IMG/VR virus record: IMGVR_UViG_3300035698_015968
Length of the DNA: 31,242 bases
From: a virus
Direction: 5' to 3' (one strand)
Below the pieces are notes generated by a model. That model worked only from the letters and a program-made list of their open reading frames with translations. It searched no databases and was not told the origin of the DNA. Below are positions 1,718 to 23,838 of this stretch, in pieces; positions within the stretch are counted from its first letter, which is position 1, and each line of letters starts with the position of its first letter. A program made the translations under genes and the position numbers.

Positions 1718-1747
1718 TTGATAAATAAACTATTGCTTATCTATAAT
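1718..1747 (+). promoter_or_regulatory. Candidate rightward promoter for the fibre operon, face-to-face with the leftward promoter
   Basis: TTGATA (1718-1723), 18-nt spacer, TATAAT (1742-1747). Chance matches are common in AT-rich DNA. Confidence 0.35.
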
Positions 1748-1748
1748 A

Positions 1749-1777
1749 AGTATATCACATTGCCATCAAGCTGTCAA
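1749..1777 (-). promoter_or_regulatory. Sigma70-type promoter reading leftward into the RHH/membrane-protein cassette
   Basis: Minus strand: TTGACA (1777-1772), 17-nt spacer, TATACT (1754-1749). Confidence 0.5.
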
Positions 1778-1874: not shown

Positions 1875-3491
1875 ATGGCAACAAAACAGATTACACCGCA
1901 ATTTGTCTATGGTATGGGTGATAACTTAATTCAAGTAGCTCCTCGTCCTATTATTGCTAACAGAGCACCAACTACAAGAGATCAGGCTGAGCTTGGAAGT
2001 ACTTGGGTTGATACTTCTGCGGGTGTATTTTATGGACTTGCGTCTATTACAGCAAATTCATCTAACTGGACAACGACTCCGGCAGCTGGTGCTACAGTTC
2101 TCGCATCACTTGATATTACTGGCGCTGGAACTTCACTAGATGTACAAAATGCTGCAGGAACTACTGTAATATCAAGTGGAACTATTAATTTTGATAATGC
2201 TGCAGGAACTACCACAATTAGTGGAGCTCTTACTGTGTCAGGCGTGACTACTCTTACAGGTGATTTAGATTTATCATCAGGGGCCTTAATTGATCTTACT
2301 TCTACTCTTGATGCGGCGCCTTCTATTTATTTGCATGCCAATGGCGGAACATCAGAACAAATTCGTATACGTTCAGACCAAGGTACTGGAGTTAGCTCTA
2401 TTCTTATTGATTCTGATGTCGGTGGGTTAACCTTACAGTCTGGTTTAGCGTCTGATGATGCTATTAATATTAATTCAACTGCTGGCGGTATAGATATTGA
2501 TGCTGCGCTACAAGTTAATCTTGCCTCATCAGAAGCAGCATCAGATGCAATATTAATTACAGCTTCTAATGCTGCTGGTGGTATAGATATGATTGCTGGA
2601 ACTGCTGGTTTAGATGTATTGGCTACCGGTGGTGATATAGTTATGGCATGTGATGGCTTTGACTTTGATTGCAGTGCTAATGGATTTGATGTTCTTGCAA
2701 CTGCTGGAGCGTTTTCTATTGATGGAGCATTAGCTTCTAATATTACGACTACTGGCGCAGGAATAGATTTAACTCTTTCATCTGTTCTTGGATCTGTATT
2801 AGTTAGCTCTACTGAAGATGCTGCTCTGGCTATTAAACTTCATGCTAATGGTGGAGTAAGTGAAACGATACAATTGCACAGTGACCAAGGAACTGGTGTT
2901 GATTCTATAAATCTTTTATCAGATGTTGGTGGAATAACACTTACAGCAACGGGAATGGCTTCTGAAGATGCAATTAATTTTGTTGCAACGGCAGGTGGTA
3001 TTGATATGGATGCTGCACTACAAGTTAATATTGCTTCATCTGAAGCTGCAGACGATGCAATTGTTATTAATGCAAGCAATGCGGCTGGTGGTATAGATAT
3101 TACGAGTGGTGGCGGAGATATTGATATTAGTGGTGGTGATATAACGATTAGTGGCCCTAATAATACCGCAGAAACAATTCTTATTACAACCAACAATGGG
3201 ACGTCTGAAACCATTGTAATCGAGGCAAATCAAGGTACAGGAAAAGATGCTATTGATATTTCATCTGCTGGTGGTGTAGAAGTAACTACAGGTGCATTAG
3301 CTGCAACTACTGGACTTCATCTTGTGCAAAGTGCACAAACTGCAGCTATACAAGTTGGTACTGGAGCTCCATCTCATAATGCACCAAAAGGGAGCCTATA
3401 TTTACGTACCGACGGCTCCAGTACGAGTACAAGGGGGTATATTGCCACAGATGCGGTGGGTACATGGACAGCAATCACAACCGCGGCGTGA
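1875..3491 (+). CDS. Tail fibre/spike-like structural protein (538 aa), Gly/Thr/Ala/Ser-rich with beta-helix-like repeats
   Basis: SD AAGGAAG upstream. There is an internal 169-aa duplication. The composition and repeat texture (GGIDIDAALQVN..., SDQGTGV...) are fibre-like. The N-terminal motif RAPTTRD...STWVDTS is shared with ORF 8549. Confidence 0.6.
   Translation: MATKQITPQFVYGMGDNLIQVAPRPIIANRAPTTRDQAELGSTWVDTSAGVFYGLASITANSSNWTTTPAAGATVLASLDITGAGTSLDVQNAAGTTVISSGTINFDNAAGTTTISGALTVSGVTTLTGDLDLSSGALIDLTSTLDAAPSIYLHANGGTSEQIRIRSDQGTGVSSILIDSDVGGLTLQSGLASDDAININSTAGGIDIDAALQVNLASSEAASDAILITASNAAGGIDMIAGTAGLDVLATGGDIVMACDGFDFDCSANGFDVLATAGAFSIDGALASNITTTGAGIDLTLSSVLGSVLVSSTEDAALAIKLHANGGVSETIQLHSDQGTGVDSINLLSDVGGITLTATGMASEDAINFVATAGGIDMDAALQVNIASSEAADDAIVINASNAAGGIDITSGGGDIDISGGDITISGPNNTAETILITTNNGTSETIVIEANQGTGKDAIDISSAGGVEVTTGALAATTGLHLVQSAQTAAIQVGTGAPSHNAPKGSLYLRTDGSSTSTRGYIATDAVGTWTAITTAA
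2331..3098 (+). repeat. Diverged intragenic duplication: 2331-2591 versus 2838-3098 (offset 507 bp = 169 aa)
   Basis: LHANGGTSEQIRIRSDQGTGVSSILIDSDVGGLTL...AGGIDM aligns with LHANGGVSETIQLHSDQGTGVDSINLLSDVGGITL...AGGIDI. Confidence 0.85.
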
Positions 3492-3555
3492 TCTGAGGTC
3501 TTTGACATATTAAGAAAGGTGAAGCATTCTATAGTTAAAATTAATTAATTATAGG

Positions 3556-4398
3556 ATGCTTATGCCATTTATAAAAAAATGTTGTCATTGTAAAGAGGAA
3601 TTTAGTAGCAAGTCTTCATTTGCAAAGCTCTGTTCACGAGAGTGCCATAATAAGCATATGTATATTGAACGCATTGAGAAAAAATGTAATCAGTGTAATA
3701 AGAAATACTTTGTAGAGGTTCGTCTAAAATCATCAAAATTTTGTTCTAACAAATGTAGTAGTGATTTTATAAAGCAACCAAAGTTAAAAAAAAAGTGCCT
3801 ATTATGCGGGACTATTTATTTAGTAGCTAAAAGGCATTATGAAAGTTCTAAGTTTTGCTCAAATTCATGTAAATGCTCTACAGCTGGTAAGAAATCATCT
3901 CAAAAGATACATAAAAAATGGGAGCAAGAAACCCATCAAGAGACAAAAGCTATAATGAAAGAAGCATTTGAAAAGTTCTTTGATAAAACGGATGGATGTT
4001 GGGAATGGAAAGGAGGTAAAAAAAATTATGGCAAGAAGTTGCCTTATGGGTCTTTCTCTTTTAGAGATAAAAGAACTAATATAGCCCATCGCATAAGTTA
4101 TGAATTATATCGAGGACTAATTCCAAAAGGATTAATAGTAATGCATATCTGTGATAACCCTCCATGTGTTAATCCTGATCATCTTAAGGTGGGTACTTAT
4201 CTTGACAATCAAAAAGATAAAGTGCGAAAGGGAAGGGGCAAAGTTGAAAAACTTTCTGAAGAAGAGGTTAAAGAGATACTATCTAGGTTTAAGATGGGAG
4301 TAAAGGGCTGTAGAATAGCTAAAGACTTTGGAATCAGTCAGAGTACTGCTTCATCAATAAAACATAGAAAATTATGGGCCTGGGTTAAAATAGATTAA
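3556..4398 (+). CDS. Free-standing HNH (HNH_3-type) homing endonuclease with three N-terminal Cys4 zinc modules and a C-terminal HTH
   Basis: HICDNPPCVNPDHLKVGT...N motif. There are three repeats of KKCxxC-x(12-15)-(F/L)CSxxC. The C-terminal GCRIAKDFGISQSTASSI is HTH-like. Confidence 0.75.
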   Translation: MLMPFIKKCCHCKEEFSSKSSFAKLCSRECHNKHMYIERIEKKCNQCNKKYFVEVRLKSSKFCSNKCSSDFIKQPKLKKKCLLCGTIYLVAKRHYESSKFCSNSCKCSTAGKKSSQKIHKKWEQETHQETKAIMKEAFEKFFDKTDGCWEWKGGKKNYGKKLPYGSFSFRDKRTNIAHRISYELYRGLIPKGLIVMHICDNPPCVNPDHLKVGTYLDNQKDKVRKGRGKVEKLSEEEVKEILSRFKMGVKGCRIAKDFGISQSTASSIKHRKLWAWVKID

Positions 4399-4492
4399 TT
4401 GAGGAAATTTATACATAGTTTTTGTATGCTTTCTATAGAAATAAAGAGAATATTTTAATGAATTCAGCTTTATAAAAAAAGAAAGAAGAGTA

Positions 4493-4828
4493 ATGCCAAC
4501 AACAAAAAGGATTATTCCGCTTGCGCTAAAATCATTTGATACAACTTCATTGTCAGCAAGCTTCCAGGTAGTAGATGCAGTAGGATTTATATACCCTGTT
4601 TCTATTTTAAAATTTATTAATGAATCTGATACCGATGGGACTGTTAGTTTTGATGGTATTACAAGTCATGACTTTGTCTTATCAGATAGTCAGACAGAGA
4701 TTAATTTTTCTGCTCTTCTTGGGTCTACTGCTCGTGGAGCTCAAATTGCTAAAAAAACAAAGATATATATTAAAGGCTCTATGGGTACAGGACTCTTTTA
4801 TGTAGTAGCATATACCCAATTACCATAG
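4493..4828 (+). CDS. Hypothetical structural-module protein (111 aa), paralogue of 4839-5177
   Basis: Shared pattern ...SFDG..(S/D)H..L......(T)(K/R)IY(I/V)K......G.FYV.A with the next ORF. It lies within the fibre cluster. Confidence 0.6.
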   Translation: MPTTKRIIPLALKSFDTTSLSASFQVVDAVGFIYPVSILKFINESDTDGTVSFDGITSHDFVLSDSQTEINFSALLGSTARGAQIAKKTKIYIKGSMGTGLFYVVAYTQLP

Positions 4829-4838
4829 GAGAGTAGAA

Positions 4839-5177
4839 ATGAGTTTATCAATTCGTCTCGTCCCAGAGACAGTTAAAGAGTTAGCTTTTGGGTCTATTGG
4901 TGCTGGTTATGCGGGAGTAGGGACTGCATTTGATAAACCTATTCGCCTCATTATTTTTCAGAACTTAACAGATGTTTCCGTTATGATTTCGTTTGACGGA
5001 GTTGATGATCATATACCTTTAGTTACGAGTGGCTACCTAGTTCTTGATATAACGGCTAATAAGACGATAGCTAATGGTTTCTATATTGCTGAAGGAACAC
5101 GTATATATGTAAAACAACTTGCTGGGGCTGCAGGCTCTGGTAGTTTTTATGTATCAGCATTCGGAGGTGCATCATGA
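4839..5177 (+). CDS. Hypothetical structural-module protein (112 aa), paralogue of 4493-4828
   Basis: SD GGAGAG upstream. ATGA overlap with the following fibre gene suggests translational coupling. Confidence 0.6.
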   Translation: MSLSIRLVPETVKELAFGSIGAGYAGVGTAFDKPIRLIIFQNLTDVSVMISFDGVDDHIPLVTSGYLVLDITANKTIANGFYIAEGTRIYVKQLAGAAGSGSFYVSAFGGAS

Positions 5178-6904
5178 GCCAAATAGGAAGTACTGCAGCT
5201 GGTGGCGGAGGTGGCGCTGTAAATAGTGTTACGGGTGGAACTGGTATCAATACGAGTGGAACTGCAGCTGATCCAGTTGTTAATCTTGATGTTCCTATCA
5301 TCATTTCTCATGGTGGAACTAATGCTATTACAATGGCAACAACATATGGTGTTAACTATTTTGATGGAACTAGTATAGTTACGACGGCTGTTGGTAATGC
5401 CGGTGAGGTACTAACATCCGGAGGAATTGGTGTCGCTCCTACGTTTCAAGCTGGTGGATCCACAATAGATATTACTGGTGATAGTGGTGGTGCCCTAACG
5501 GGAACATCATTTACCTTTACTGGTGGAACTACAGGTATTACTTTTGCTGGAGCAGGAACAACTGAAACACTTACAGGTACTCTTGTAGTTGCTAATGGCG
5601 GAACCGGAGCTACTGCGTTAACACAATACAATGTATTGATAGGTAACAATGTTTCTGCTATTACAACAGTAGCTCCTTCTGCAACCAGTGGTGTTCCTTT
5701 GATTTCACAAGGCGCAGCAGCTGATCCAGCATTTGGAACAGCAGTAGTTGCGGGTGGTGGATCTGGACGAACCACAGCAACAGCATATGCAGTAATTTGT
5801 GGTGGAACTACAACAACAGCAGCACATCAGTCAATAGCATCTGTAGGTACATCTGGTCAGCTATTAACCTCTAATGGTGCTGGTGCTCTTCCAACATTTC
5901 AGACTGCTGGGTCAGCTTCTATTTCTATAACGGGTGATAGTGGTGGGGCTTTAGTTGCCTCTGCATTTACCTTTACTGGTGGAACTACGGGACTTACTTT
6001 TGCTGGTGCCGGAACAACTGAAACGATTACAGGAACTCTTGTAGTTGCTAATGGTGGTACTGGTCTTACTTCATTCACGCAGGGTGATATAATTTATTCT
6101 TCAGCAGCAAACACATTGAGTGCACTTGCTAAGAATGCTTCTTCGACTCGTTATCTTTCTAATACCGGAGCATCTAATAATCCTGCATGGGCTCAGATTG
6201 CACTAGCAACAGGTGTTAGTGGAACTCTTCCAGTTGCCAATGGTGGTACGAGCTCTACTTCGTTAACACAATATAATGTATTAATTGGTAATAATACTTC
6301 TGCTATTGCAACAGTAGCTCCTTCTGCAACAAGTGGTGTTCCTTTGATTTCACAAGGCGCAGCAGTCAATCCAGCATTTGGCACCGCTGTAGTTGCAGGT
6401 GGTGGATCTGGACGAACTACAGCAACAGCATATGCAGTAATTTGTGGTGGAACTACAACAACGGCAGCGCATCAATCAATTGCATCTGTTGGTACGAGCG
6501 GACAAATATTAACCTCTAATGGAGCTGGCGCTCTTCCAACGTTTCAAGCAGCTGGTGGTGGTGGTGGTGGACTTACCTGGGCAGTTACAACGGTTAATGC
6601 GACATTGGTTGTTGCAAATGGCTATATAGCTAATAAAGCAGGTCTTTTGACAATGACATTGCCATCTACAGCTGCTATTGGAGATATAATTGAGTTAACT
6701 AATATCAATACTGCTGTGGGGTGGAGAATTGCACAGAATGCTCTACAAGCAATACGATTTGGTAGTTCACTTACAACAATAGGAGTTGGTGGGTACCTAG
6801 AAGCTACTGCACTGGGCGACTCAGTAAGAATGGTCTGCACAGTCTCTGGAACATCTACTCGGTGGCTTATATTGTCTAGTTTAGGAAACATAACCATCGT
6901 ATAA
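5174..6904 (+). CDS. Tail fibre protein (576 aa) with large internal repeats and a distinct C-terminal domain
   Basis: SD GGAGGTG upstream. Repeated modules ITGDSGGAL..FTFTGGTTG.TFAGAGTTE..TGTLVVANGGTG and VG(T)SGQ.LTSNGAGALPTFQ. The N-proximal VNSVTGGTGINTSGTAADPVVNLD module is shared with ORF 8549. Confidence 0.75.
   Translation: MSQIGSTAAGGGGGAVNSVTGGTGINTSGTAADPVVNLDVPIIISHGGTNAITMATTYGVNYFDGTSIVTTAVGNAGEVLTSGGIGVAPTFQAGGSTIDITGDSGGALTGTSFTFTGGTTGITFAGAGTTETLTGTLVVANGGTGATALTQYNVLIGNNVSAITTVAPSATSGVPLISQGAAADPAFGTAVVAGGGSGRTTATAYAVICGGTTTTAAHQSIASVGTSGQLLTSNGAGALPTFQTAGSASISITGDSGGALVASAFTFTGGTTGLTFAGAGTTETITGTLVVANGGTGLTSFTQGDIIYSSAANTLSALAKNASSTRYLSNTGASNNPAWAQIALATGVSGTLPVANGGTSSTSLTQYNVLIGNNTSAIATVAPSATSGVPLISQGAAVNPAFGTAVVAGGGSGRTTATAYAVICGGTTTTAAHQSIASVGTSGQILTSNGAGALPTFQAAGGGGGGLTWAVTTVNATLVVANGYIANKAGLLTMTLPSTAAIGDIIELTNINTAVGWRIAQNALQAIRFGSSLTTIGVGGYLEATALGDSVRMVCTVSGTSTRWLILSSLGNITIV
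5621..6547 (+). repeat. Near-identical ~280-bp intragenic direct repeats (5621-5902 and 6266-6547); a second pair at 5471-5608 / 5927-6073
   Basis: By eye roughly 85-90% identical, with perfect runs of over 30-40 bp (for example acagcaacagcatatgcagtaatttgtggtggaactacaacaac). Confidence 0.9.
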
Positions 6905-9975: not shown

Positions 9976-10986
9976 TTAAATAAAGTTTATCTTTTTAGAT
10001 ATATTCTCTTCGTCACTAGTCTTATCATATGCCATAACCATTGTGTTGTTTCTGTGACCAGTTACTTGCATGATTTGTGAGTCGCTTGCTCCTTGATTGC
10101 GAACAAGTGTTACCCAGGTGGCACGTAGAACATGAGGAGTTACTTTAATTTTAATGTTAGCTCTCTCTCCTGCTTTTTTAAATGCATAATTAAGCTGGAA
10201 TCGTGTTACCATTTTTCCGGTTCTTGTAATAAAAACAAAAGGTGAGTCTTTTCGTATATCAATTGTTTCTGTTATATACATTTTAAGTTCTTCCATAAAA
10301 GACAATGGAAATGTAATGGGTATTTCACGAAATGTTCCGCATGACTTTGACTGTCTATAGCGAATAATATTTTTTCCCCAATCTATTTGAGAAAGTTTAA
10401 TGCTAATGACTTCTGTTATTCTTTTGGCCCCATGAAATGCTGATCGAGCTATCAATGAGTCTCTTGTATTAATATCTGACAACTCAGAAATGAACTTATA
10501 CCATTCTGCTAAGGTTAAAGCATTGGTTGCACATTTTTCTCGTACTTTATAAAACGTTGGATTTGACCTGAGCCTTGATGGTTCTACTTTTCTGACCCAT
10601 CCTTGGCTTATTCGGGATAAGTAGGATGTGAGTGATATATATACTGCTGCATGCAATTGTCGAGTACCTTCTGACCATTCTTTAATGCTTTTTATGTAAT
10701 CAAGAACTAGCTCATGAGGGATAAGTCTAAAGTGTCCCACTGTAAAAGGATTTCCTAAAGCATCTTTCTCAGGGATGATATTACGTCGTATCATATCGGT
10801 TACATAATAAGAATAGTTTCGTCTCGTTTCAGGAGAAAGATTCTTTAGCCAATTATGCAGTACTGATTTAATAGAAGAGTTCTCAAGCTTTTCGATAAAG
10901 GCATAAGAATTGTGCTTAAACAAATCTTGTGATGCTAAGGAATGTTCTGATGGATTATATTTATTTAAAATGGGAATATCCTGCAT
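9976..10986 (-). CDS. int: Tyrosine recombinase / phage integrase
   Basis: Catalytic-domain pattern: GAKRITEV (Arg), HVLRAT (H-x-x-R), GH, and the MAYDK tyrosine near the C-terminus. The N-terminal SAM-like region contains RRNYSYYV. Confidence 0.85.
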   Translation of the reverse strand: MQDIPILNKYNPSEHSLASQDLFKHNSYAFIEKLENSSIKSVLHNWLKNLSPETRRNYSYYVTDMIRRNIIPEKDALGNPFTVGHFRLIPHELVLDYIKSIKEWSEGTRQLHAAVYISLTSYLSRISQGWVRKVEPSRLRSNPTFYKVREKCATNALTLAEWYKFISELSDINTRDSLIARSAFHGAKRITEVISIKLSQIDWGKNIIRYRQSKSCGTFREIPITFPLSFMEELKMYITETIDIRKDSPFVFITRTGKMVTRFQLNYAFKKAGERANIKIKVTPHVLRATWVTLVRNQGASDSQIMQVTGHRNNTMVMAYDKTSDEENISKKINFI

Positions 10987-11773: not shown

Positions 11774-12577
11774 CTAACGACCTTCTCTGAGTTTTTTTAT
11801 CTCACGTATTCTTCTTACAGAAACCATATATTTATCTTTTGGCATATCAGCAAGAGATTGAATTTTTAGTCCTTCTAGTACCATTTCACAAATGTCAGTA
11901 TAATCACCGAGCTCATATTCTAACTCTTCTAACTGTTCTTTGGTAATAGTTTCTGAACTTTGTTTTCTTGGATTATATTTTGTGTTAAGTGCTACCCCTT
12001 TTGACACTGTCTTTCTCATGTCATGTACTGCTAGTTCACCATCATCATCTTCATTAGCTGATACAACACCAATAATTGAAGCATATGAATATCTTCTAAG
12101 GTAAGTGATGTAAGAGCCAAGAGATTGTATGTCAGGCTTATGTGGTACAATTCTCATGCGACTTTCTATCCACTGACCTGATGCATGACCCAAGATAGTA
12201 TGAAGAAAGTTTTGTCCTTCTTTGTTTGGCATAATCTGTTGTATAACACTCAGCTCATTCTTTGTTAAAGCACTGCGAGAAGCTTTAACAACTTCAGCAA
12301 GACCAGCATATTTGCTTTTAAAGTAAGGATTCTCTGAGTTTAATCCTGCTGATCTCATTTCTGATTGAGCTTTAGCTAATGCACTAAATAAATCTTTTAA
12401 ATCATCAGATCTTGTTTTTTGAATGTCTTTTGGTGATTCAAGCTTTTGAGAAAGAGAACGAATTTCATTTAATATATAACTTAGCTTTTCAGATATTTTT
12501 TTATCATTACTCTCTTGTAGTGCTTCACTCATATGGCGATCATGACGATCTTGAATAGTTTTTTTCATACTTTCCAT
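11774..12577 (-). CDS. erf: ERF-family single-strand annealing recombinase
   Basis: NPYFKSKYAGLAEVVKASRSALTKNELSVIQ resembles the conserved ERF core (N-P-[FY]-F-K-S-K-Y-A-x-L). The size is typical for the family. Confidence 0.7.
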   Translation of the reverse strand: MESMKKTIQDRHDRHMSEALQESNDKKISEKLSYILNEIRSLSQKLESPKDIQKTRSDDLKDLFSALAKAQSEMRSAGLNSENPYFKSKYAGLAEVVKASRSALTKNELSVIQQIMPNKEGQNFLHTILGHASGQWIESRMRIVPHKPDIQSLGSYITYLRRYSYASIIGVVSANEDDDGELAVHDMRKTVSKGVALNTKYNPRKQSSETITKEQLEELEYELGDYTDICEMVLEGLKIQSLADMPKDKYMVSVRRIREIKKLREGR

Positions 12578-13320: not shown

Positions 13321-14463
13321 ATGAGAAACAGATTACTAGTTATCATTAACAAAAACAAGAATAAATCAAATTTTACTAAAATACAAGTAAATAAAAAAAC
13401 TTCTTTTCAATTAGGTATAAAAGGTAGTTTGCATTTATTAACTATTATAGATGGTTTAACTCGAACTCAACTCAGACTTCTTAACTATCTTATAGGTCTA
13501 AGCAATACATACAAGCATATTTATCCATCACAATCAAAAGCTATAGCTAATTATGTTGGATGTACAAGAGAGACTGTAAATCGTTACATAAAAGTACTAA
13601 AAGGTCTCGGCCTTATTGCAAGCAAGCGGCGTTGGAAGGCGAGCAATCTTTATGCAGTAGATCCTATATTTTTTGATACCAAGATACGATCTCTTCTTTC
13701 AGGAGTACTTCCATCACTACGTTTTCTTCCACTTGTCTTTCTCAGCCTGGTTAATTGCATGATTCCTATTCAGTCTGAATATATGCCTAATGCCCCTATA
13801 TTAAATCCTGTGCAGTATGAATATAGCACAAGAAATAGTATTACAAGTAAGTCTATATATCCCTGTAATAATGCTTTCGCTACCGGGGATGCTAAAAAGA
13901 AGAGAAAATCGCACCAGAAAACGAAGAAACGCAAGAAATTGCCTTCTAATTATTCGAAGTGGGCTAAAATGAAGCACTTTAAACAGGAGTCGGCTACACC
14001 TCCTCAATATATTGTAGATTTGTCTACATTACATTTGACAATTGATGGTCAAACCAAGCTGAGTGTATTCCCCTCGGATGCTATAGCTCATGCAAAAGAG
14101 AAGATGAAGCACTTTAGAAATATAAAAGATCCGTTTAATTGGTTCTTTATGGTGTGTAAGAAGTGGTGTGATGCTAATGAGATTGTACCAGACTGGCAAA
14201 AGGCACAGTCCGTTGGTAGATCTGCCATCATGAGTAAAAAGATTGCAGATCGTCCATATATGGTACGTAATCATTCTCCGCAAATAGTAGAAAAAGAGTT
14301 ATCTAAACAAGAGAAGATAAAAAAGGCTAAAAAAGATATTATTAAATACCAAGAGATGCTGATTGAGCCACCATCAGGTAGTAGGTTCTTCTTGAAAGAG
14401 CTGACTAAAATATGGTATAACAGCATTCAATCGTTAACGAAAGAAATTAAAGAGTTGCAATAG
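13321..14463 (+). CDS. Winged-HTH DNA-binding protein, putative replication initiator or replisome organiser
   Basis: TQLRLLNYLIGLSNTYKHIYPSQSKAIANYVGCTRETVNRYIKVLKGLGLIASKRR is a typical wHTH. It lies downstream of the iterons and upstream of the RusA-like gene. Confidence 0.45.
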   Translation: MRNRLLVIINKNKNKSNFTKIQVNKKTSFQLGIKGSLHLLTIIDGLTRTQLRLLNYLIGLSNTYKHIYPSQSKAIANYVGCTRETVNRYIKVLKGLGLIASKRRWKASNLYAVDPIFFDTKIRSLLSGVLPSLRFLPLVFLSLVNCMIPIQSEYMPNAPILNPVQYEYSTRNSITSKSIYPCNNAFATGDAKKKRKSHQKTKKRKKLPSNYSKWAKMKHFKQESATPPQYIVDLSTLHLTIDGQTKLSVFPSDAIAHAKEKMKHFRNIKDPFNWFFMVCKKWCDANEIVPDWQKAQSVGRSAIMSKKIADRPYMVRNHSPQIVEKELSKQEKIKKAKKDIIKYQEMLIEPPSGSRFFLKELTKIWYNSIQSLTKEIKELQ

Positions 14464-14471
14464 GAGTTGTA

Positions 14472-14876
14472 ATGAGTAGAAGCAAGACGTATGTGTTAGA
14501 TTATGACCCATTTTTATTAGCTCGTATATGCTTTGCTAATGTTAAGAGAATGTGGGATGCGCAACGAGAATTAAAAATAAGAACGCTCCTTTCTCTTAAG
14601 GGTCAGCATGGAGAAGCACGATTATTTTCTGGACCTTTATGTCTTGAAGCTGTTTTTTACATACGACCAAAGTGTGCACTAGTAGATCAAAGTAATAAAA
14701 GTGTTTATAGAAAGTCCTGTATAGTTCGTCCTTCTATAAGAGACTGTTTAAAGTTTGTTTTTAACACTTCCAATAAAATTATTTATAAAAGCACTGATCA
14801 AATAGCTGAGATACGTACAAAAAAGATTTACGATAAGCACCCACGAGTAGAATTTACTATAAGTGAGATAGCATAA
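14472..14876 (+). CDS. RusA-like Holliday-junction resolvase (divergent)
   Basis: SD AGGAG upstream. The layout GPLCLEAVFYIRPK...RPSIRDCLKFVFN...IIYKSTDQIAEIRTKKIY..PRVEFTISEI parallels RusA (...DLDNL.K...DAL......DD.QV........GRLELTITE), but several acidic positions are substituted. Confidence 0.4.
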   Translation: MSRSKTYVLDYDPFLLARICFANVKRMWDAQRELKIRTLLSLKGQHGEARLFSGPLCLEAVFYIRPKCALVDQSNKSVYRKSCIVRPSIRDCLKFVFNTSNKIIYKSTDQIAEIRTKKIYDKHPRVEFTISEIA

Positions 14877-14900: not shown

Positions 14901-15428
14901 ATGTCAGTAAAGAAGAGAACCTTAAACAATAGCAATAAAAGAGTAAAGTCAGCAAAAAAGGTTACAAAACGTGACTCTGACACGCCTTATAGCGCATGGT
15001 TAGAAGATTACCGAGATACTTTTAGCATGCGTGTAAAACCAATCTCATCATCATTTATAACACGACTTTCAAAAGAGCTTGTAAAGTGGTCTGTCTCTAG
15101 TGATTCAGCGCTTACACTTGGTAAGTTCTATATCATGAAAGGTATATTAAAAAAAACATTTTATAAATGGGTAAAGAAATATCCTGAAATGACAGACGCT
15201 CATTCTGTTGCTATGCAGATTATAGGCATACGAAGAGAAGAGGGAGCATTAACGCGTAAGCTTGAGCCTTCTACGGTGAAACATACAATGCCACTCTATT
15301 GTGAAGATATAAGAGAGCTTGAAGTGTGGAGATCTAAGCTCAAAGAGAATGAGAATTCTCATGTAGCGCCAAGTGTTATTGTTCTTGATAGCATTCCAAA
15401 CTCACCACTCGTTCCCAAAAAGAAGTAA
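14901..15428 (+). CDS. Terminase small subunit (putative)
   Basis: SD AAGGAG upstream. It lies immediately upstream of terL and has a basic N-terminus. The segment FYKWVKKYPEMTDAHSVAMQIIGIRREEGAL resembles the HTH-plus-helix layout of small terminases. Confidence 0.55.
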   Translation: MSVKKRTLNNSNKRVKSAKKVTKRDSDTPYSAWLEDYRDTFSMRVKPISSSFITRLSKELVKWSVSSDSALTLGKFYIMKGILKKTFYKWVKKYPEMTDAHSVAMQIIGIRREEGALTRKLEPSTVKHTMPLYCEDIRELEVWRSKLKENENSHVAPSVIVLDSIPNSPLVPKKK

Positions 15429-15435
15429 AGAGTAC

Positions 15436-16806
15436 ATGAAATTAAAAATAGAGACACGATTAAAGCTTAATAGATTTAAGCCTCGCTCTTATCAGATACC
15501 TATCATGGATGCTTTATTCAACAAGGGCTACAAACGTATTCTTGCTGTATGGGCACGCCGTAGTGGAAAGGATGTTTTAGGATGGAATTGTATGATCCGA
15601 GCTGCATTGCTAAAGCCTGGTGTTTATTTTTATTGTGCGCCTACGTATTCACACGGGAGAAAGATAATATGGGACTCAATGACAAATGATGGTTTTAAGT
15701 TTTTAGACTATATACCATCAGAACTTATAGAGCGAAAGAATGACCAACAGATGAAACTTCATCTTGTTAATGGGTCATTGATCCAGGTGATTGGTTCAGA
15801 CTCTTACGATAGAAGTTTAGTAGGTTCTAACCCGCTTGGTATCGTGTTTACTGAGTGGGCCTTAGCAGATCCAAGAGCGTTCCAGTATGCTCGTCCTATT
15901 TTGGCAGCAAATGATGGTTGGGCCATGTTTTTGAGTACACCACGAGCAAAGAATCATTTTTATGAGTTATATCAGATAGCATCAAATCATCCTGATTGGT
16001 ATTCGAGTTTTCTTACGGTAATGGATACTGGCCATATATCTCTCGAGACAATACAGAAAGAGAGATATTCTGGTTTAATAAGTGAAGATCTTATACAACA
16101 AGAGTATTTCTGTAGCTTTACGCTCGGAGTTGAAGGATCATATTATTCTAAATACATTGATCGCATGAAACTTAAGGGTCAAATAGGTAGTGTTCCATGG
16201 GAAAGTGCATTCTCTGTTCATACAGCATGGGATTTAGGGGTTCGTGACTCAACTTGCATTATCTTCTTTCAGACTATTGGTCAGACGGTACGTATCATTG
16301 ATTGTTATGAGAATAGCAAAGAAGGTCTTGAGCATTATGTGAATGTTATCAAGAACAAACCGTATACGTATGGTAGACATATAGCCCCTCATGACATTGC
16401 TGTAAAAGAATGGGGTTCAGGATTAACGCGTATTGAGAAGGCAAAGCAGTTAGGAGTAAAGTTTATGACTGCTGCCAACATTAGTATTATTGATGGTATA
16501 GAGGTTGTGCGTTCCTCTTTAGGTAAGATTTGGATTGATAATACTCAATGCGTTAGTTTAATAAAATCTATTGAGGGATATAGACAAGAGTATGATCATA
16601 AGCGAAAGGTATATAAAGCACATCCATTGCATGATAGTAATTCTCATTTTGCTGATGCTATGAGATACCTTTGTATTTCTTTACCTAAGGTTAAAAACAC
16701 AACTACACCAGAAGAATTAGATAGACGATACGCTGAAACACTCTATGGTCGTAATAATAACAGTAATATGCCATCGATATTTAGAGACGATCTACCACAC
16801 TATTGA
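15436..16806 (+). CDS. terL: Terminase large subunit
   Basis: Walker-A-like VWARRSGKD near the N-terminus and a C-terminal nuclease-like region (HTAWDLGVRDSTCIIFFQ...). The start is moved to the ATG at 15436, directly after the TerS stop at 15426-15428; the track start 15373 overlaps TerS. Confidence 0.85.
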   Translation: MKLKIETRLKLNRFKPRSYQIPIMDALFNKGYKRILAVWARRSGKDVLGWNCMIRAALLKPGVYFYCAPTYSHGRKIIWDSMTNDGFKFLDYIPSELIERKNDQQMKLHLVNGSLIQVIGSDSYDRSLVGSNPLGIVFTEWALADPRAFQYARPILAANDGWAMFLSTPRAKNHFYELYQIASNHPDWYSSFLTVMDTGHISLETIQKERYSGLISEDLIQQEYFCSFTLGVEGSYYSKYIDRMKLKGQIGSVPWESAFSVHTAWDLGVRDSTCIIFFQTIGQTVRIIDCYENSKEGLEHYVNVIKNKPYTYGRHIAPHDIAVKEWGSGLTRIEKAKQLGVKFMTAANISIIDGIEVVRSSLGKIWIDNTQCVSLIKSIEGYRQEYDHKRKVYKAHPLHDSNSHFADAMRYLCISLPKVKNTTTPEELDRRYAETLYGRNNNSNMPSIFRDDLPHY

Positions 16807-16823
16807 AGTACCTTATAAGTTAT

Positions 16824-16838
16824 GGCCCCACGTGGGCC
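16824..16838. other. GC-rich palindromic hairpin between convergent terL and the acidic-protein gene
   Basis: ggccc-cacgt-gggcc contains the 10-bp palindrome cccacgtggg. There is no clear U-tract. Confidence 0.35.
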
Positions 16839-16847
16839 CGTAACTAC

Positions 16848-17216
16848 TTAATTTTTGGCAACGAATTCCTCTTCTTCTTTTATTTCAAAGTAGGCTTTTG
16901 TGATAGCTCTTTTTTGTATATCTTTGAGACTATCTAATACTTCTTCCAGCTCAAATTCATTGATATTCTTAGCAAATATTTTTAGTGCTCTTGGGGTTAA
17001 AGAATCTTTTGAAGTAATGTCATTGTTTAGGATGAATAGTCTTAATTCATAAAGAACATCATATTTATCTCCACCAACTCTGCATAAAATTTCATCGTTA
17101 TTTCCAGCATCTCTTTCTTCTTCGATTAATTCGCAATATTCTTCTACTCCTCGTTCGATGATATAATTGATCATTTCTTCATTTGTCTTGGTCAATTCTT
17201 TGTTTATATTTTTCAT
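16848..17216 (-). CDS. Acidic hypothetical protein (122 aa; 29 D+E versus 18 K+R)
   Basis: SD AGAAGGA upstream. It is driven by a perfect consensus promoter and is oriented opposite to the packaging genes. Confidence 0.65.
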   Translation of the reverse strand: MKNINKELTKTNEEMINYIIERGVEEYCELIEEERDAGNNDEILCRVGGDKYDVLYELRLFILNNDITSKDSLTPRALKIFAKNINEFELEEVLDSLKDIQKRAITKAYFEIKEEEEFVAKN

Positions 17217-17261
17217 TTTTATCCTTCTGATTGTTTATCTGTTTCCTTACCTTCTACTATA

Positions 17262-17290
17262 ATTATAGCATAGTTTGGTAAGGTTGTCAA
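17262..17290 (-). promoter_or_regulatory. Perfect consensus sigma70 promoter (TTGACA-17-TATAAT) reading leftward
   Basis: The reverse complement of 17262-17290 is TTGACAaccttaccaaactatgcTATAAT. Confidence 0.65.
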
Positions 17291-17312
17291 GGTTGGTAGT
17301 CTATGTTATACT
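17284..17312 (+). promoter_or_regulatory. Rightward promoter TTGTCA-17-TATACT whose -35 overlaps the -35 of the leftward promoter
   Basis: TTGTCA 17284-17289, TATACT 17307-17312. The direct repeat AAGGTTG (17280-17286 and 17289-17295) spans the shared -35 region. Confidence 0.5.
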
Positions 17313-17405
17313 TATAATAGGTGAAAGAGATACTTATTAATTACATACGGGGATAAAAATAATGGAATCATCAAAAAAACAGCTTATTGCTATGAGTAGT
17401 AAAGA

Positions 17406-17591
17406 ATGATGAATTTTAAAGACTTCTTAATGATAACAGAAGCAGCTGAGTTTCTGGGAGTTCATAAAAATACACTTCGTAATTGGGAAAAAGCTAAAAG
17501 AATAAAGGTGTATTATCATCCTATTTCAAAGTATAGATTCTATAAGAAAGAAGATTTAGAGGCTATTTTAAATAGTTTTAAGGTCGATTAA
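17406..17591 (+). CDS. MerR/excisionase-family HTH protein (61 aa); Xis-like or Cro-like regulator
   Basis: LMITEAAEFLGVHKNTLRNWEKAKRIKVYYHPISKYRFYKKEDLEAIL matches the excisionase/MerR-type HTH pattern. A 15-codon upstream ORF (17362-17409) overlaps its start. Confidence 0.65.
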   Translation: MMNFKDFLMITEAAEFLGVHKNTLRNWEKAKRIKVYYHPISKYRFYKKEDLEAILNSFKVD

Positions 17592-17784
17592 AAAGTTGGG
17601 TTCAAGATTGTATCTTCTCAAAAGTGAGTACTACAGATTGTTTTGGTGAAATCATATCCAAATCAGTGGGGTGAGATTTCTCGTAGTATGTTAAGGGGTT
17701 ACTTACCATTTGAGGAAAAGTGGAAACGGCCTGAATAAAAATAAGTTTATTAAAGGGCGAGTATGAATGTAAAGGATGTAAAAA

Positions 17785-18000
17785 ATGAAAATAAAAGGTC
17801 TTGAAGAGTTTTTAGAAAAGAGTGGCTTGTTTGATCCTAAATATAATCAGGATTACCTTAAGTCAGGAGCCGTAAGAAACTTGTATAAACTGTTGAGAAA
17901 TAGTGGTATGTCTGACGAATTAATAGAAGAGCGTATTAAGATATTTCTTTGTCGGTTAGATTGTTCTGGCAATAAGCCTAGAAGTGATGGCAAAATGTAG
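17785..18000 (+). CDS. Hypothetical protein (71 aa)
   Basis: SD AAAGGA upstream. No motif recognised. Confidence 0.45.
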   Translation: MKIKGLEEFLEKSGLFDPKYNQDYLKSGAVRNLYKLLRNSGMSDELIEERIKIFLCRLDCSGNKPRSDGKM

Positions 18001-18382
18001 TATTATAAGGCGGTTAATAAAAACTCATCAAATAAAAGGATTGTCAGTGAACAAGGATAAAGCATTAGAGCACGCAATGGCATGGGCTATACAGCATATT
18101 TATAAGATAAATAAAGAGGCTCAAGATTTACTTAAAAATAAAGAGATGGATGAGGCGACAAAGATGGAAAGGGTTCATGGTCCTCATGGAACTGACTATC
18201 AATTATTAAATCTCATTTTACTCTTAAAGCCTATGGTAGAGTTTGCAAAAGAATCTTATCTAGATAGAAAAGAATTCTTCCTCTGGTTTGATGAAAAATG
18301 GTCAGTTATACAAGAGAAGAAAATGATTGAAGGTGATTGTGGTTGTAAGGGATGTAGAAAAGAGGATGCACCCAAGGTTTAA
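17984..18382 (+). CDS. Hypothetical protein (132 aa), C-terminal CGCKGC motif
   Basis: Open frame overlapping the previous ORF by 17 nt. No motif recognised. Confidence 0.45.
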   Translation: MMAKCSIIRRLIKTHQIKGLSVNKDKALEHAMAWAIQHIYKINKEAQDLLKNKEMDEATKMERVHGPHGTDYQLLNLILLLKPMVEFAKESYLDRKEFFLWFDEKWSVIQEKKMIEGDCGCKGCRKEDAPKV

Positions 18383-18425
18383 TGTGCTATCTTTTTCCTA
18401 GAAACTTTTTAAAAAAGGAATTAGT

Positions 18426-20423
18426 GTGCCTTTATTCCCTCAATTAGGACCTCAGTACTATAATGAGAAAAACCGCGGTGTCTTGAGCCGTATGGAAGCA
18501 TTCTATGCTGAGGCTATTACTATTAACCAGTCCTTCTGGAGTGAAGCAGATACCGACACTCGCTTTGAAGCAGGTGATCAGACTTTGTGGAACGATATTT
18601 ACGGATCTATCCCCATAAATCGTAGAAAACAGTTTAACTTCAATAGAATTCGTCGTGTTGTAAACATGATATCTGGTAATCAGAGACGGAATAGAAAGTC
18701 TATAATCGCAGTTCCTACAGAGAATGGTGATGCAGATACTGCTGATCAGTTTTCAAAGATACTTATGTGGCTTTCACAGCAAGAAGGTGTGTTAGAAACG
18801 ATCTCTGATTCGTTTCATGGATCATTAGTAACGGGTATGAACCTCTTACAGGTATGGATGGATTATCGTCGTGATCCTATTTCTGGTGATATACGTGTAG
18901 ATAACTGTGCTTATAATAGTTTTCTTATTGACCCCTTCTTTAAGAAAGCTGATTTATCTGATTGTAATGGATTATGGAAGCGTTCATTTGTTTCTAAAAA
19001 AGAAGCTCTTTCTCTTCTCCCTGATCAAGCAGATGAAATAATGGGAATGCAGGGTCAAGCTGGCGGAGGAAAAGATGGGAAGTTTGAATTTATGCCTGAA
19101 TCATTAAACTCAGGCAATCAAGGTCTTCTTGCGTATGATGAGTACTATTATCGTGATTACAGAACACAGCGCATGCTTGTTGATACGCAAACTGGTGAAA
19201 CGATGGAGTGGAAGTCTTCTAAAGAAGAATCGCTTGAAGAGTTTCTTGCTACCTATCCTCAAGTTACTGTTATTAACCAAGAGGTCCCAACAGTTAAGTT
19301 GGCTATTGTTCTTGAAGGTCGTGTTATGTACGACGGTCCTAATCCTCTTGGGATAGATATTTATCCATTCGTTCCCGTATTTGCTTACTATAATCCTCAA
19401 ATACCTTACTTTCCTTGGAGAATACAGGGTGTTGTTCGTGGACTACGAGATGCGCAATATTTGTATAATAGAAGAAGACAAATAGAATTAGATATTCTTG
19501 AATCGCAACTGAATTCAGGTTGGGTTTATAAGGAAAATGCTTTAGTTAATCCAAAAGATGTCTTTCTTTCAGCTCAAGGTCGTGGTTTAGCGTTAAAAGA
19601 AGAAGCTAATATGACCGATGTACAACGTATAAATGCTCCTCAAATACCACCTTCTATGATTCAGTTAAGTGAACTATTAGCACGTGAAGTTATGGAGATC
19701 TCTGGTGTTAATGAAGAACTTCTTGGATCTGCTACTGATGATAAGGCTGGTATTCTTTCTATGCTCAGACAAGGAGCAGGACTTACTACGCTTCAAGGAT
19801 TGTTTGATAATCTTGATAATGCACAAAAGCTATTGGGTAAAATTCTTATAGAATTGATTCAGGTTAACTTTACACCAGGAAAAGTTAAAAGAATTATAGA
19901 GGAAGAACCTACTGCTCAGTTTTATAATAAAGCTTTTGGTCGTTATGATGCAGCAGTTGAAGATGGATTAAATACTACCACTCAACGACAAATGCAGTTT
20001 GCCCAGTTATTACATTTACGTGAGGTCGGAGTTCAAGTTCCTGATAGTGTTCTGCTAGAAGCTTCTACATTACAGAACAAGAAACAGCTGACTGAAACTA
20101 TTGCTAAACAAGCTGAACAGCAAGCTCAACAAACAAATGTTCAGATGCAAGCTTCGATGGCAGAATTAGAAGCTCGTATAGAATCTGAGAAAGCACGAGC
20201 GGTAGCTAATAGAGGGCTTGGAATTGAACGAATAAGTCGAGTAGAGGAAAATAAAGCTCTTGCTATTGAAAGAAAAGCAGAGGCTCAAAAAGATAGATTT
20301 AGTGGGATCTTGGATCTTGCTAAGGCTATGAAAGAAATGGAAGATATTGACTTGCGACAGATTGAAAAACTGATCACACTTAGTCAGATGGTTAAGAAGC
20401 AAGAGAGCAATCTTGAGCTTTAA
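18426..20423 (+). CDS. Portal protein
   Basis: GTG start with SD AAGGAA upstream. 665 aa. It sits between the terminase and scaffold/capsid genes. It has a long C-terminal coiled-coil (QAEQQAQQTNVQMQASMAELEARIESEKARAV...), as in barrel-bearing podoviral portals. Confidence 0.75.
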   Translation: MPLFPQLGPQYYNEKNRGVLSRMEAFYAEAITINQSFWSEADTDTRFEAGDQTLWNDIYGSIPINRRKQFNFNRIRRVVNMISGNQRRNRKSIIAVPTENGDADTADQFSKILMWLSQQEGVLETISDSFHGSLVTGMNLLQVWMDYRRDPISGDIRVDNCAYNSFLIDPFFKKADLSDCNGLWKRSFVSKKEALSLLPDQADEIMGMQGQAGGGKDGKFEFMPESLNSGNQGLLAYDEYYYRDYRTQRMLVDTQTGETMEWKSSKEESLEEFLATYPQVTVINQEVPTVKLAIVLEGRVMYDGPNPLGIDIYPFVPVFAYYNPQIPYFPWRIQGVVRGLRDAQYLYNRRRQIELDILESQLNSGWVYKENALVNPKDVFLSAQGRGLALKEEANMTDVQRINAPQIPPSMIQLSELLAREVMEISGVNEELLGSATDDKAGILSMLRQGAGLTTLQGLFDNLDNAQKLLGKILIELIQVNFTPGKVKRIIEEEPTAQFYNKAFGRYDAAVEDGLNTTTQRQMQFAQLLHLREVGVQVPDSVLLEASTLQNKKQLTETIAKQAEQQAQQTNVQMQASMAELEARIESEKARAVANRGLGIERISRVEENKALAIERKAEAQKDRFSGILDLAKAMKEMEDIDLRQIEKLITLSQMVKKQESNLEL

Positions 20424-22890: not shown

Positions 22891-23838
22891 ATGCCTGTTA
22901 CGACTACGAGTTTGTTGCCGGCTCCAGTACAACAAAGTTTTAGTTATAAACTGTTGTCTGTTCCTGTACCAAACATGATCCATAAAATACCTGCGATGAA
23001 GAAAGCTATGCCAAGGAATGGCGGACGTACATTACGTATGCGTCGTTATAATCCTTTGCCGAGTGCTCTTGTTCCTCTTGGAAACACAGGAATTACACCT
23101 CCTTCAGTTGCTTTATCTGCAATAGATATTGATGCTCGCATTGATTTCTACGGGCAGTACATTCAATTGAATGAGCAAGTTACTTTGCAAAACCAAGATC
23201 CAGTTCTAAATGAAGCAGCGGCTCGTTTAGGTGTTTCTCTTCGTCAAACTGAAGATGAGCTTACACGTAATATGCTTGCTAGTACTGCAGCATTTATTAA
23301 CTGTGTTGGTGGAGTAAACGGAGATAACCCAACTGAAATTACTCGTTTTGATGTGAATGAAGTTGTGCGTACTCTTCTTGATAATGATGCTTACACCATC
23401 ATGGACAATATTGAGGGTGAAGATAAATTTGGAACAGCTCCAGTTCGTGATGCATATTTTGCATTAGGATCTACTCAGCTTACTGGTGATCTTGATAACG
23501 TTGCTGGTTTTATCCATAAAAATCAATATCCATCACCTATGGATGCTTTGCGTTCAGAGTGGGGAGCTATTGGTAACCTTCGTTTCCTTGTTTCTTCTAT
23601 TGGTTCTGTTTCTCCTAATGCTTCTGTGTTAGACAATAATGTATATAACGTTTTCTGTGTTGGTATGGAAGCGTATGCATGTATAGAACAAGATGGATAC
23701 AGCTCAACATTTATTTATAGACCACCTATATATGATGGACCGTTAGCACTTAATGCCTCTGTTGGTTATAAGTTTGCTGAAGTTCCTCGTATTACGAATG
23801 ATCTATGGGTAATTAATATGCGTTGCACAAGATCTTAA
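22891..23838 (+). CDS. Major capsid protein, HK97 fold, N4-gp56-like family
   Basis: SD AAGGA upstream. KKAMPRNGGRTLRMRRYNPLPSALVPLGNTGITPP...IDFYGQYIQLNEQV matches the typical lp.n.G.t..frRy..l....L.EG.tP....YG pattern of this capsid family. Confidence 0.8.
   Translation: MPVTTTSLLPAPVQQSFSYKLLSVPVPNMIHKIPAMKKAMPRNGGRTLRMRRYNPLPSALVPLGNTGITPPSVALSAIDIDARIDFYGQYIQLNEQVTLQNQDPVLNEAAARLGVSLRQTEDELTRNMLASTAAFINCVGGVNGDNPTEITRFDVNEVVRTLLDNDAYTIMDNIEGEDKFGTAPVRDAYFALGSTQLTGDLDNVAGFIHKNQYPSPMDALRSEWGAIGNLRFLVSSIGSVSPNASVLDNNVYNVFCVGMEAYACIEQDGYSSTFIYRPPIYDGPLALNASVGYKFAEVPRITNDLWVINMRCTRS

Follow-up and report, generated by a model that had tools for sequence, protein, structure and literature searches.

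A hypervariable slot between terL and portal in an uncultured tailed phage holds orphan genes and a probable portable promoter-regulator cassette

What fills the space between the terminase large subunit gene and the portal gene when the two are set about 1.6 kb apart, and how might such a filling be controlled? The question is raised by IMG/VR record IMGVR_UViG_3300035698_015968, a 31,242-nt stretch of viral DNA (here called the window) that represents the almost complete genome of an uncultured tailed phage. Between terL (15436..16806, + strand) and the portal gene (18426..20423, +) lie a leftward gene for an acidic protein of 122 amino acids (acid122), two divergent promoter matches, a gene for a 61-residue helix-turn-helix (HTH) protein designated HTH61, and two small rightward open reading frames (ORFs), orf71 and orf111. 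The initial annotation treated this interval as a single accessory island, and each feature that it listed is indeed present where it had been placed. The explanation that we consider likely is that the slot filling is a mosaic of a portable promoter-HTH61 cassette, the leftward cargo gene acid122 and the small rightward helical proteins of orf71 and orf111. The phage family concerned has genomes of ~35-40 kb and P22-type portals, and is known from metagenomes only.

The slot between terL and portal

The left border of the interval is a TerL of 456 residues (PHROG 2472/2, terminase large subunit), counted from the ATG at 15436 that the gene callers use, the longest ORF beginning at GTG 15373; the right border is a portal protein by phrog_156 (E 1.8e-74) and PF16510 (P22_portal). 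A search of IMG/VR with the TerL protein yielded 225 relatives, and the neighbourhoods of the best 80 terL loci were inspected. In the 42 relatives with a portal gene downstream of terL the gap measures 101-4824 bp, and the 136 ORFs that lie in these gaps fall into 104 BLAST clusters. In contigs of metagenome-assembled genomes (MAGs) the gap ranges from 18 bp to 3.6 kb, and terL and portal stand only 18-111 bp apart in the near-empty loci L097, L007, L018 and L096. Given these gap sizes and the unrelated ORFs, direct adjacency of terL and portal is taken to be the basal state and the junction a site of hypervariable cargo; the interval is a true hypervariable accessory-gene slot. The annotated splitting of terL from portal by accessory DNA is thus borne out by relatives whose gaps of 18 bp to 4.8 kb carry unrelated genes.

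Elsewhere in the family the gap cargo includes several HNH endonuclease families, an RNA ligase, a clostripain-type peptidase, GroES, an endolysin, a restriction-endonuclease-like protein, an outer-membrane beta-barrel protein and HTH regulators; known defence systems were not found among the cargo of the terL-portal gaps. The island contains no core morphogenesis gene, and the synteny comparison that had been proposed as a check on the presence or absence of the island finds a variable gap in relatives, with no conserved core morphogenesis genes in it. acid122 occurs only in the window's phage and its closest relative, L081; a different gene takes its place in L001, and the gaps of other relatives are empty or hold something else. 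This gene therefore lies between conserved genes and is absent from the same site in close relatives, as morons are, a concept reportedly due to Hendrix. As phage mosaicism goes, a slot with a regulator in it is well founded but commonplace.

DNA similar to the terL-to-portal stretch was not found among 50,697 phage records. A single-sequence terL scan of genome contigs also gave no match; a terL profile scan of the same kind of contigs gave 53 loci, mostly on contigs of ~35 kb, in MAGs of many phyla. This scatter across phyla looks like binning noise and is no pointer to the host.

The terL border itself varies in several relatives, where the gene carries large in-frame inserts (L001, at 2505-4889; L152, L046, L037, L029 and L107). 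TerL of L001 has 794 residues with an intein-like insert following the Walker region, TerL matches at other loci are split across 2-3 kb, and an intein-splicing domain turned up in a scan of the gap proteins.

Separate histories within the island

Comparison with the closest relatives separates the filling into parts. L081 shares 89% amino-acid identity with the window in TerL and 95% in portal, and its gap holds acid126 (65% identical to acid122), HTH62 (95% identical to HTH61), an orf71 homolog and an orf111 homolog (84%), together with a distant orf111 paralog and an extra gene for a 277-residue protein. L001, at 81% TerL identity, keeps the HTH and orf111 homologs and has an unrelated leftward gene of 111 codons where acid122 stands. 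At the DNA level acid122 is 56-82% identical between the window and L081 and the terL/portal backbone 85-90%, while the block of promoters, leader and HTH gene (~17248-17560) is 94-100% identical. Synonymous divergence (dS) from L081 is likewise 0.10 for the HTH gene and 0.54-0.71 for terL, portal and acid122. These values point to a promoter-HTH block that was recently exchanged or is under unusual constraint. The ratio of nonsynonymous to synonymous divergence (dN/dS) is 0.42 for acid122, 0.40 for orf71, 0.27 for the HTH gene and 0.25 for orf111, against 0.05-0.10 for core genes, from which the island genes are judged to be real and fast-evolving.

The island filling is therefore a mosaic of three parts with different histories. 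The reading of these genes as an accessory island holds in so far as they are cargo of a variable slot; it does not hold for the island as a single unit, since the promoter-HTH block has a history of its own.

Two extra inserts of ~150-185 bp distinguish L081 from the window (5021-5196 and 6048-6250 in locus coordinates, minus strand), one between terL and the acidic gene and the other after the HTH gene. Each is flanked by 17-22-bp direct repeats, and a perfect 13-bp stem-loop is found in one of them; the two may be duplicated or mobile elements of small size. In L001, the gene that replaces acid122 (4939-5274, - strand) weakly resembles the C-terminal region of orf111-family proteins (E 0.006-0.02), a CxCxGC motif included, and may be a diverged orf111 paralog on the opposite side of the promoter.

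A portable HTH61 cassette

HTH61 (17406..17591, +) is a winged-helix protein of the MerR-N/HTH_17 type and the candidate repressor of both promoters. Its Pfam matches are to HTH_17 (38.9 bits, cut-off 27; 1e-9), MerR (31.8 bits, cut-off 28.2; 1.2e-7) and MerR_1 (22.5 bits, cut-off 21.6), and the HTH domain takes up residues 10-57 of the 61; orthologs have 59-67 residues. The C-terminal coiled-coil dimerisation helix and the effector-binding domain of canonical MerR proteins are lacking, and HTH61 is thus a small protein consisting of the MerR-type winged helix alone, like BldC. Orthologs all terminate where HTH61 does. Read-through of the HTH61 stop codon was considered and found to have no case, the ortholog ends being in agreement and the downstream frame being conserved with L081 for only ~15 codons.

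A profile of three HTH proteins recovered 24 viral loci, ~17 of them in this phage family as assigned by homologs of terL, portal, capsid, ERF or RusA. The orthologs are 47-65% identical and are found in five genomic settings: between ERF and the replication genes, where the gene heads the rightward genes with its own promoter (L148, L150, L157); within early operons (L146, L153, L154); between terL and orf175, a gene of 175 codons (L155); in the terL-portal gap on either strand (the window, L081, L001/L147, L151, L145, L152); and between the portal and capsid genes (L149, L161-163). Those orthologs that have an intergenic region ahead of them keep the promoter, a TTGNNA -35 box 17 nt from a -10 box that reads TATACT in L148, L150 and L157 and TACACT in L147. 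A core gene of the family is excluded as a description of this regulator, which is found within 8 kb of terL in only 1 of the best 80 terL loci and is absent from five near-complete relatives. Judged by this comparison of loci, the promoter and HTH61 form a portable cassette that moves between slots in the phage family.

The initial annotation called HTH61 MerR/Xis-like, and the Xis half of that description does not hold in relatives. HTH61 could in principle be the excisionase, or recombination directionality factor, of the integrase at 9976-10986, the rest of the island then being moron cargo: the window has a tyrosine integrase with no adjacent Xis gene, HTH61 is the only excisionase-type fold found in it, and the protein matches PHROG 66 ("excisionase and transcriptional regulator", 3.9e-8) as well as the TIGR01764 excise domain (5.4e-6). 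The TIGR01764 score of 26.7 bits is, however, below the cut-off of 28.8, the HTH61 gene lies 6.4 kb away from int, and its promoter carries a repeat array, which is what would be expected of an autoregulator. Moreover, neither PF00589 nor PF00239 (tyrosine or serine recombinase) is present in any of the five complete relatives that bear close HTH orthologs. Because the protein occurs in complete genomes without an integrase, it is taken to be a regulator; the excisionase reading is largely rejected and must be considered very unlikely.

HTH61 is preceded by the 15-codon leader ORF of the initial annotation (17362..17409, +), which encodes MESSKKQLIAMSSKE and whose TGA stop overlaps the HTH start codon as ATGA. 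The leader is present in L081 with one amino-acid change and is absent from L147. Neither the leader region nor the 17589-17700 spacer that follows the HTH gene folded better than shuffled controls.

L158-L160 and L166, which lie outside this phage family, carry more distant HTH_17 homologs. In L158-L160, contigs of 60-90 kb, the homolog is followed by a 534-residue protein and three more genes; in L166 the HTH_17 domain forms the N-terminal part of a fusion with a cytosine-5 DNA methyltransferase in which PCQ and ENV motifs are visible.

Divergent promoters and direct repeats

The promoter that is predicted to drive acid122, TTGACA-17-TGnTATAAT at 17290..17262 (- strand), matches the consensus at 12/12 positions and has the TG extension; the annotated perfect promoter is thus confirmed as a match and is the only one of its score in the window. 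Of 300 first-order Markov simulations 3% produced a 12/12 match, and none produced one with TG. It lies 46 bp upstream of the acid122 ATG, with a predicted start near 17255 and a ribosome-binding site, AAGGA, 5-6 nt before the ATG. In L081 the promoter is still 12/12, all three substitutions being in the spacer. The rightward promoter, TTGTCA-17-TGnTATACT at 17284..17312 (+), matches at 10/12 positions, also with the TG extension; it is predicted to serve the leader, HTH61, orf71 and orf111, and transcription from it may continue into portal. The -35 hexamers of the two promoters have 5 bp in common, and two copies of AAGGTTG (17280-17286 and 17289-17295) accompany them, all as first described.

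From this shared -35 box the initial annotation concluded that the two promoters form a mutually exclusive switch, a conclusion that comparison with relatives does not sustain. The design recurs only in L150, where a palindromic TTGCAA is the -35 box of both promoters. In L081 a 19-bp insertion right after TTGTCAAG turns TTTATA, 12 bp away, into the rightward -35 box; in L147/L001 a distance of 23 bp separates the -35 boxes, and in L148 the -10 boxes overlap rather than the -35 boxes. A second, leftward promoter for an unrelated gene is also found upstream of the HTH gene in L147, L148 and L150; a promoter scan found none in L157. The recurrent feature is a compact divergent promoter region and not a shared -35 box as a conserved design, and the lack of recurrence weakens the switch reading.

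In its full form that reading makes the divergent pair a lysis-lysogeny switch, with one gene lysogenic and the other lytic. It draws on the overlap in the window and its counterpart in L150, on the lack of any CI/Cro-type HTH elsewhere in the window by Pfam, and on the Cro-like position of the HTH gene between ERF and replication genes in L148, L150 and L157. It is countered, beyond the loss of the overlap in the closest relatives, by the lack of a DNA-binding signature in acid122 and its replacement by unrelated genes in relatives, by the lack of recombinases of either kind in the relatives checked, which are thus probably not temperate, and by a separate candidate ribbon-helix-helix repressor with an 11/12 promoter at 1526-1705. 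We regard a switch of this kind as highly improbable; joint repression of both promoters by the HTH protein is a better fit than a toggle with mutually exclusive outputs.

Candidate sites for such joint repression are three tandem 9-bp units, AGTTTGGTA, AGGTTGTCA and AGGTTGGTA (17272..17298, +), each with a TTGNNA hexamer, which overlap both -35 boxes. The units were identified by eye, are not reported by repeat-finding tools and were tested only across loci. The 19-bp insertion of L081 amounts to two more units, giving five against three in the window, and an array of this kind is present on the opposite strand in L147. Wherever two TTGNNA hexamers lie within 40 bp on the same strand in the 11 independent HTH upstream regions, they are 9, 10, 18, 19, 28-30 or 39 bp apart, a periodicity described as about 9.5 bp. 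A pair spaced 9-10 bp is present in 5/11 of these regions, which none of 2000 shuffles reached; since such a pair occurs in 2.7% of random 150-bp segments of the same loci, the probability of 5/11 is 6e-6. With the window left out the count is 4/10 (P about 1e-4).

By analogy with BldC and with Gp36 of mycobacteriophage D29, the TTGNNA repeats suggest direct-repeat binding sites through which both promoters would be repressed. HTH61 would bind head-to-tail to the repeats and cover both -35 boxes, thereby silencing its own operon together with the promoter of the leftward cargo gene. Expression from the strong promoters would then be a short burst, or be set to a given level, and would be restrained from there on, a negative autoregulation of the BldC, D29 Gp36 or Aca type. 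The most likely targets of the cargo proteins would be the host or competing elements.

Several points weigh against this explanation. The array of the window taken alone is within chance (13/18 matches, with ~3 such arrays estimated per 31 kb), the TTGNNA motif was chosen after the window had been seen, and TTGNNA resembles -35 boxes and is expected in promoter regions anyway. Several HTH orthologs, inside operons, have neither promoter nor repeats ahead of them. Constraint, instead of recent exchange, could account for the high identity of the promoter-HTH block, and the promoters were scored against the sigma-70 consensus, whose use in the host is an assumption.

Orphan cargo proteins

The leftward cargo gene (16848..17216, -) encodes acid122, a predicted all-helical orphan with 29 acidic (D+E) and 18 basic (K+R) residues and an isoelectric point (pI) of 4.57. 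It had been called strongly acidic; the count of 29 acidic residues is correct, but the net charge is only -11 and the adverb overstates it. The exact protein is found in many metagenome assemblies on contigs of up to 31.8 kb. Its only relative among 5.8 billion clustered proteins is the L081 homolog, and among 1.84 billion cluster representatives it finds only itself; Pfam, PHROG, NCBIfam and PADLOC contain no matching family, and a profile search of PDB sequences gave no match. The AlphaFold2 (AF2) model is all-helical and unreliable, with a mean confidence (pLDDT) of 49.7, and a Foldseek search run on this poor model was empty, a result that bears neither way on a DNA-mimic fold. By its sequence relationships acid122 is a fast-evolving orphan.

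Between the convergent terL and acid122 genes there is, as annotated, a GC-rich hairpin (16818..16845) that is a weak candidate for a two-way terminator. Its folding energy is -15.1 kcal/mol on the + strand and -13.6 kcal/mol on the - strand (z about -1.5); it is not flagged in a terminator scan, lacks a U-run on the minus strand and is not preserved in L081, where a spacer of 255 bp stands in this place. The hairpin is real but modest and no textbook terminator.

The initial annotation suggested, as a speculation, that the acidic protein is a DNA mimic, an anti-restriction-type factor or a lysogeny-expressed moron; the searches lend the DNA-mimic idea no support. The locus may be viewed as one of counter-defence: acid122, perhaps with orf71 and orf111, would be an anti-restriction, anti-CRISPR or DNA-mimic factor, made from very strong promoters under an Aca-like HTH repressor. 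The proposal refines the mosaic-cassette explanation rather than opposing it. A conserved small HTH gene beside small, unrelated and quickly replaced orphans, a consensus-match promoter, acidic cargo and the raised dN/dS of acid122 are all in keeping with it, as are the repression of strong acr promoters by Aca proteins and the two-way regulation ascribed to Aca11/13. The cargo proteins, however, match no anti-defence or defence family in PHROG, Pfam, NCBIfam or PADLOC, and for acid122 the PDB sequence search and the fold search, the latter with its poor model, were empty. Its net charge is also modest next to that of the DNA mimics Ocr and ArdA. Furthermore, the cargo gene is transcribed away from the HTH gene instead of sharing an operon with it. 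A 2026 survey of Aca proteins (PMC13551039) does not mention MerR or excisionase. Counter-defence is thus a possible, though on balance unlikely, specification of what the cargo does.

A broader form of the same idea, which we hold to be doubtful, is that the HTH_17 cassette is a new Aca-like marker, a BldC/Xis-type repressor with a strong two-way promoter that nucleates new counter-defence gene clusters. Such genes would include acid122 as well as its unrelated leftward counterparts in L001, L148, L150 and L157, and if this were true, tracking the HTH gene through metagenomes would lead to many new inhibitors of bacterial immunity.

On the rightward side the HTH gene is followed by a spacer of 193 bp (17592..17784, +) that has no significant fold (z -0.3) and no Rfam match. 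The 190 bp of apparently non-coding DNA in the initial annotation therefore exist, but they are not featureless: the first 82 bp (17592-17673) are 89% identical to L081. A 31-codon ORF at 17643-17738, in the HTH frame, matches the start of the longest-ORF call of the L081 orf71 homolog; only about 15 codons are conserved with L081 and it is probably not a gene.

The two small ORFs that were annotated after the spacer are confirmed, and both encode orphan proteins. Orf71 (17785..18000, +) is a small basic protein whose only homolog is in L081, where it is 59% identical to the C-terminal part of g97; no families matched it in PHROGs, Pfam or NCBIfam. Orf111 (18047..18382, +) has a longest frame of 17984-18382, and its orthologs point to a GVG-type start at GTG 18047 that gives 111 residues. 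Its family comprises 13 clusters among 5.8 billion proteins. The AF2 model (pLDDT 85.6) predicts a helical bundle with a flexible C-terminal CxCKGC tail, a fold that has no match at E <= 0.001 in PDB or BFVD. Both orf71 and orf111 products are small helical proteins.

The position of the orf111 family gives reason to ask whether orf111, and orf71 with it, are optional packaging or head-assembly helpers and not host-directed cargo. At all six loci inspected (L001, L081, L092, L169, L170 and L171) the family lies in the terL-portal gap, in L171 as the only gene of the gap; orf111 is transcribed in the direction of the structural genes, and its dN/dS of 0.25 is compatible with such a role. It is nevertheless absent from the relatives with gaps of 18-111 bp and from most others, and it has no structural or sequence likeness to any virion protein in PHROG, PDB or BFVD. 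A helper function is considered quite unlikely, and the mosaic explanation, with orf71 and orf111 as cargo, is retained. Acid122 and the orf111 family are true orphans by fold and family, and any function found for them would be new.

Relation to known regulators and accessory loci

Both components of the locus are of a well known kind, morons or accessory hotspots on the one hand and small MerR-type repressors that act through direct repeats on the other. Accessory-gene hotspots have been described in P2 and P4 (PMC9122126), in a hotspot survey (bioRxiv 10.1101/2024.10.15.618418) and as accessory regions (bioRxiv 10.1101/2023.04.06.535777). The present slot shares with these a fixed site between conserved core genes and small unrelated genes that are rapidly replaced and missing altogether in some relatives, with at least one island gene that is oriented opposite to the late operon and equipped with a promoter of its own. 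It differs in that no known defence system is among its cargo, the terminator of the leftward gene is unconvincing, and part of the filling is a regulator cassette that uses other slots too.

A close parallel is BldC of Streptomyces, which lines up head-to-tail on arrays of 9-bp direct repeats whose length varies (PMC5859096). HTH61 resembles it in having only a MerR-type winged helix in a protein of ~60-70 residues, with no coiled coil or effector domain, and in candidate sites made up of direct repeats that recur every 9-10 bp and vary in number. Unlike BldC, whose repeat is AATT-N4-C, the phage repeat is based on TTGNNA, and the HTH61 gene is phage-borne and mobile; HTH61 gave no phmmer match to any PDB chain, BldC included. 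A phage example is Gp36 of mycobacteriophage D29, a MerR-type repressor that binds direct repeats (PMC12266134). It is, like HTH61, a small phage protein of the MerR family that was once read as Xis-like, and it represses phage genes; its sites, however, are GC-rich and gp36 is fixed beside the integration region.

Aca repressors act on strong anti-CRISPR (Acr) promoters (PMC6765145, PMC9410906, PMC12282945). In common with acr-aca loci the present one has a conserved small HTH gene beside variable small orphans, a very strong promoter match, repeats over promoter boxes and slots in the structural region. The HTH class is different, MerR/HTH_17 not being named among the Aca families in PMC13551039, the cargo gene is divergent here and upstream in the same operon there, and no Acr homology was found in the family searches (PHROG, Pfam, NCBIfam, PADLOC).

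Classical MerR regulators work at divergent, overlapping merR/merT promoters through a palindromic site within a long spacer of 19-20 bp. HTH61 is likewise a MerR-type HTH protein encoded at a compact divergent promoter region, but at 61 residues it has no dimerisation helix or effector domain, its candidate sites are direct repeats, and the promoter spacers are 17 bp.

Taken alone, the locus is one more example of a terL-portal cargo slot; the useful part is the cassette. A promoter-regulator cassette that remains traceable at 47-65% identity amid entirely different neighbour genes can be followed by its conserved sequence, and it thereby marks where the family keeps fast-changing, probably host-directed genes. 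It would also be a simple test case for regulation by short MerR-type proteins through direct repeats.

Genome setting

The other recognisable genes of the window include, on the - strand, a tyrosine integrase (9976-10986) and an ERF recombinase (11774-12577), followed by a replication initiator (13321-14463), RusA (14472-14876) and the conserved 175-aa protein of orf175 (14901-15428), which stands in the place of a small terminase ahead of terL. A capsid protein gene (22891-23838) comes after portal, with tail genes after it. Rfam gave nothing meaningful, either for the whole window at gathering thresholds or for the island at E <= 1, and tRNA genes were not found in the window.

A tyrosine integrase is absent from all ten complete or near-complete relatives checked (G001-G010), which suggests that the family is mostly non-integrating and that the gene was gained specifically in the lineage of the window's phage. 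Direct terminal repeats are present in three of the five HTH-bearing relatives.

Near the start of the window, immediately upstream of a tail-fibre-like gene, there is a further compact group at 1115-1777. Its leftward ORF of 59 codons (1526-1705) resembles a ribbon-helix-helix repressor and has a weak Pfam HicB match (20.8 bits, cut-off 21); a hydrophobic ORF of 107 codons (1115-1438) is next on the same strand. The 59-codon ORF lies 37 nt downstream of an 11/12 promoter, TTGACA-17-TATACT with TG, at 1777..1749, which faces a rightward 11/12 promoter at 1718..1747. The arrangement at 1526-1777 beside the tail-fibre-like gene is reminiscent of the immI region of P22, and this group may be the real lysogeny or immunity control of the phage.

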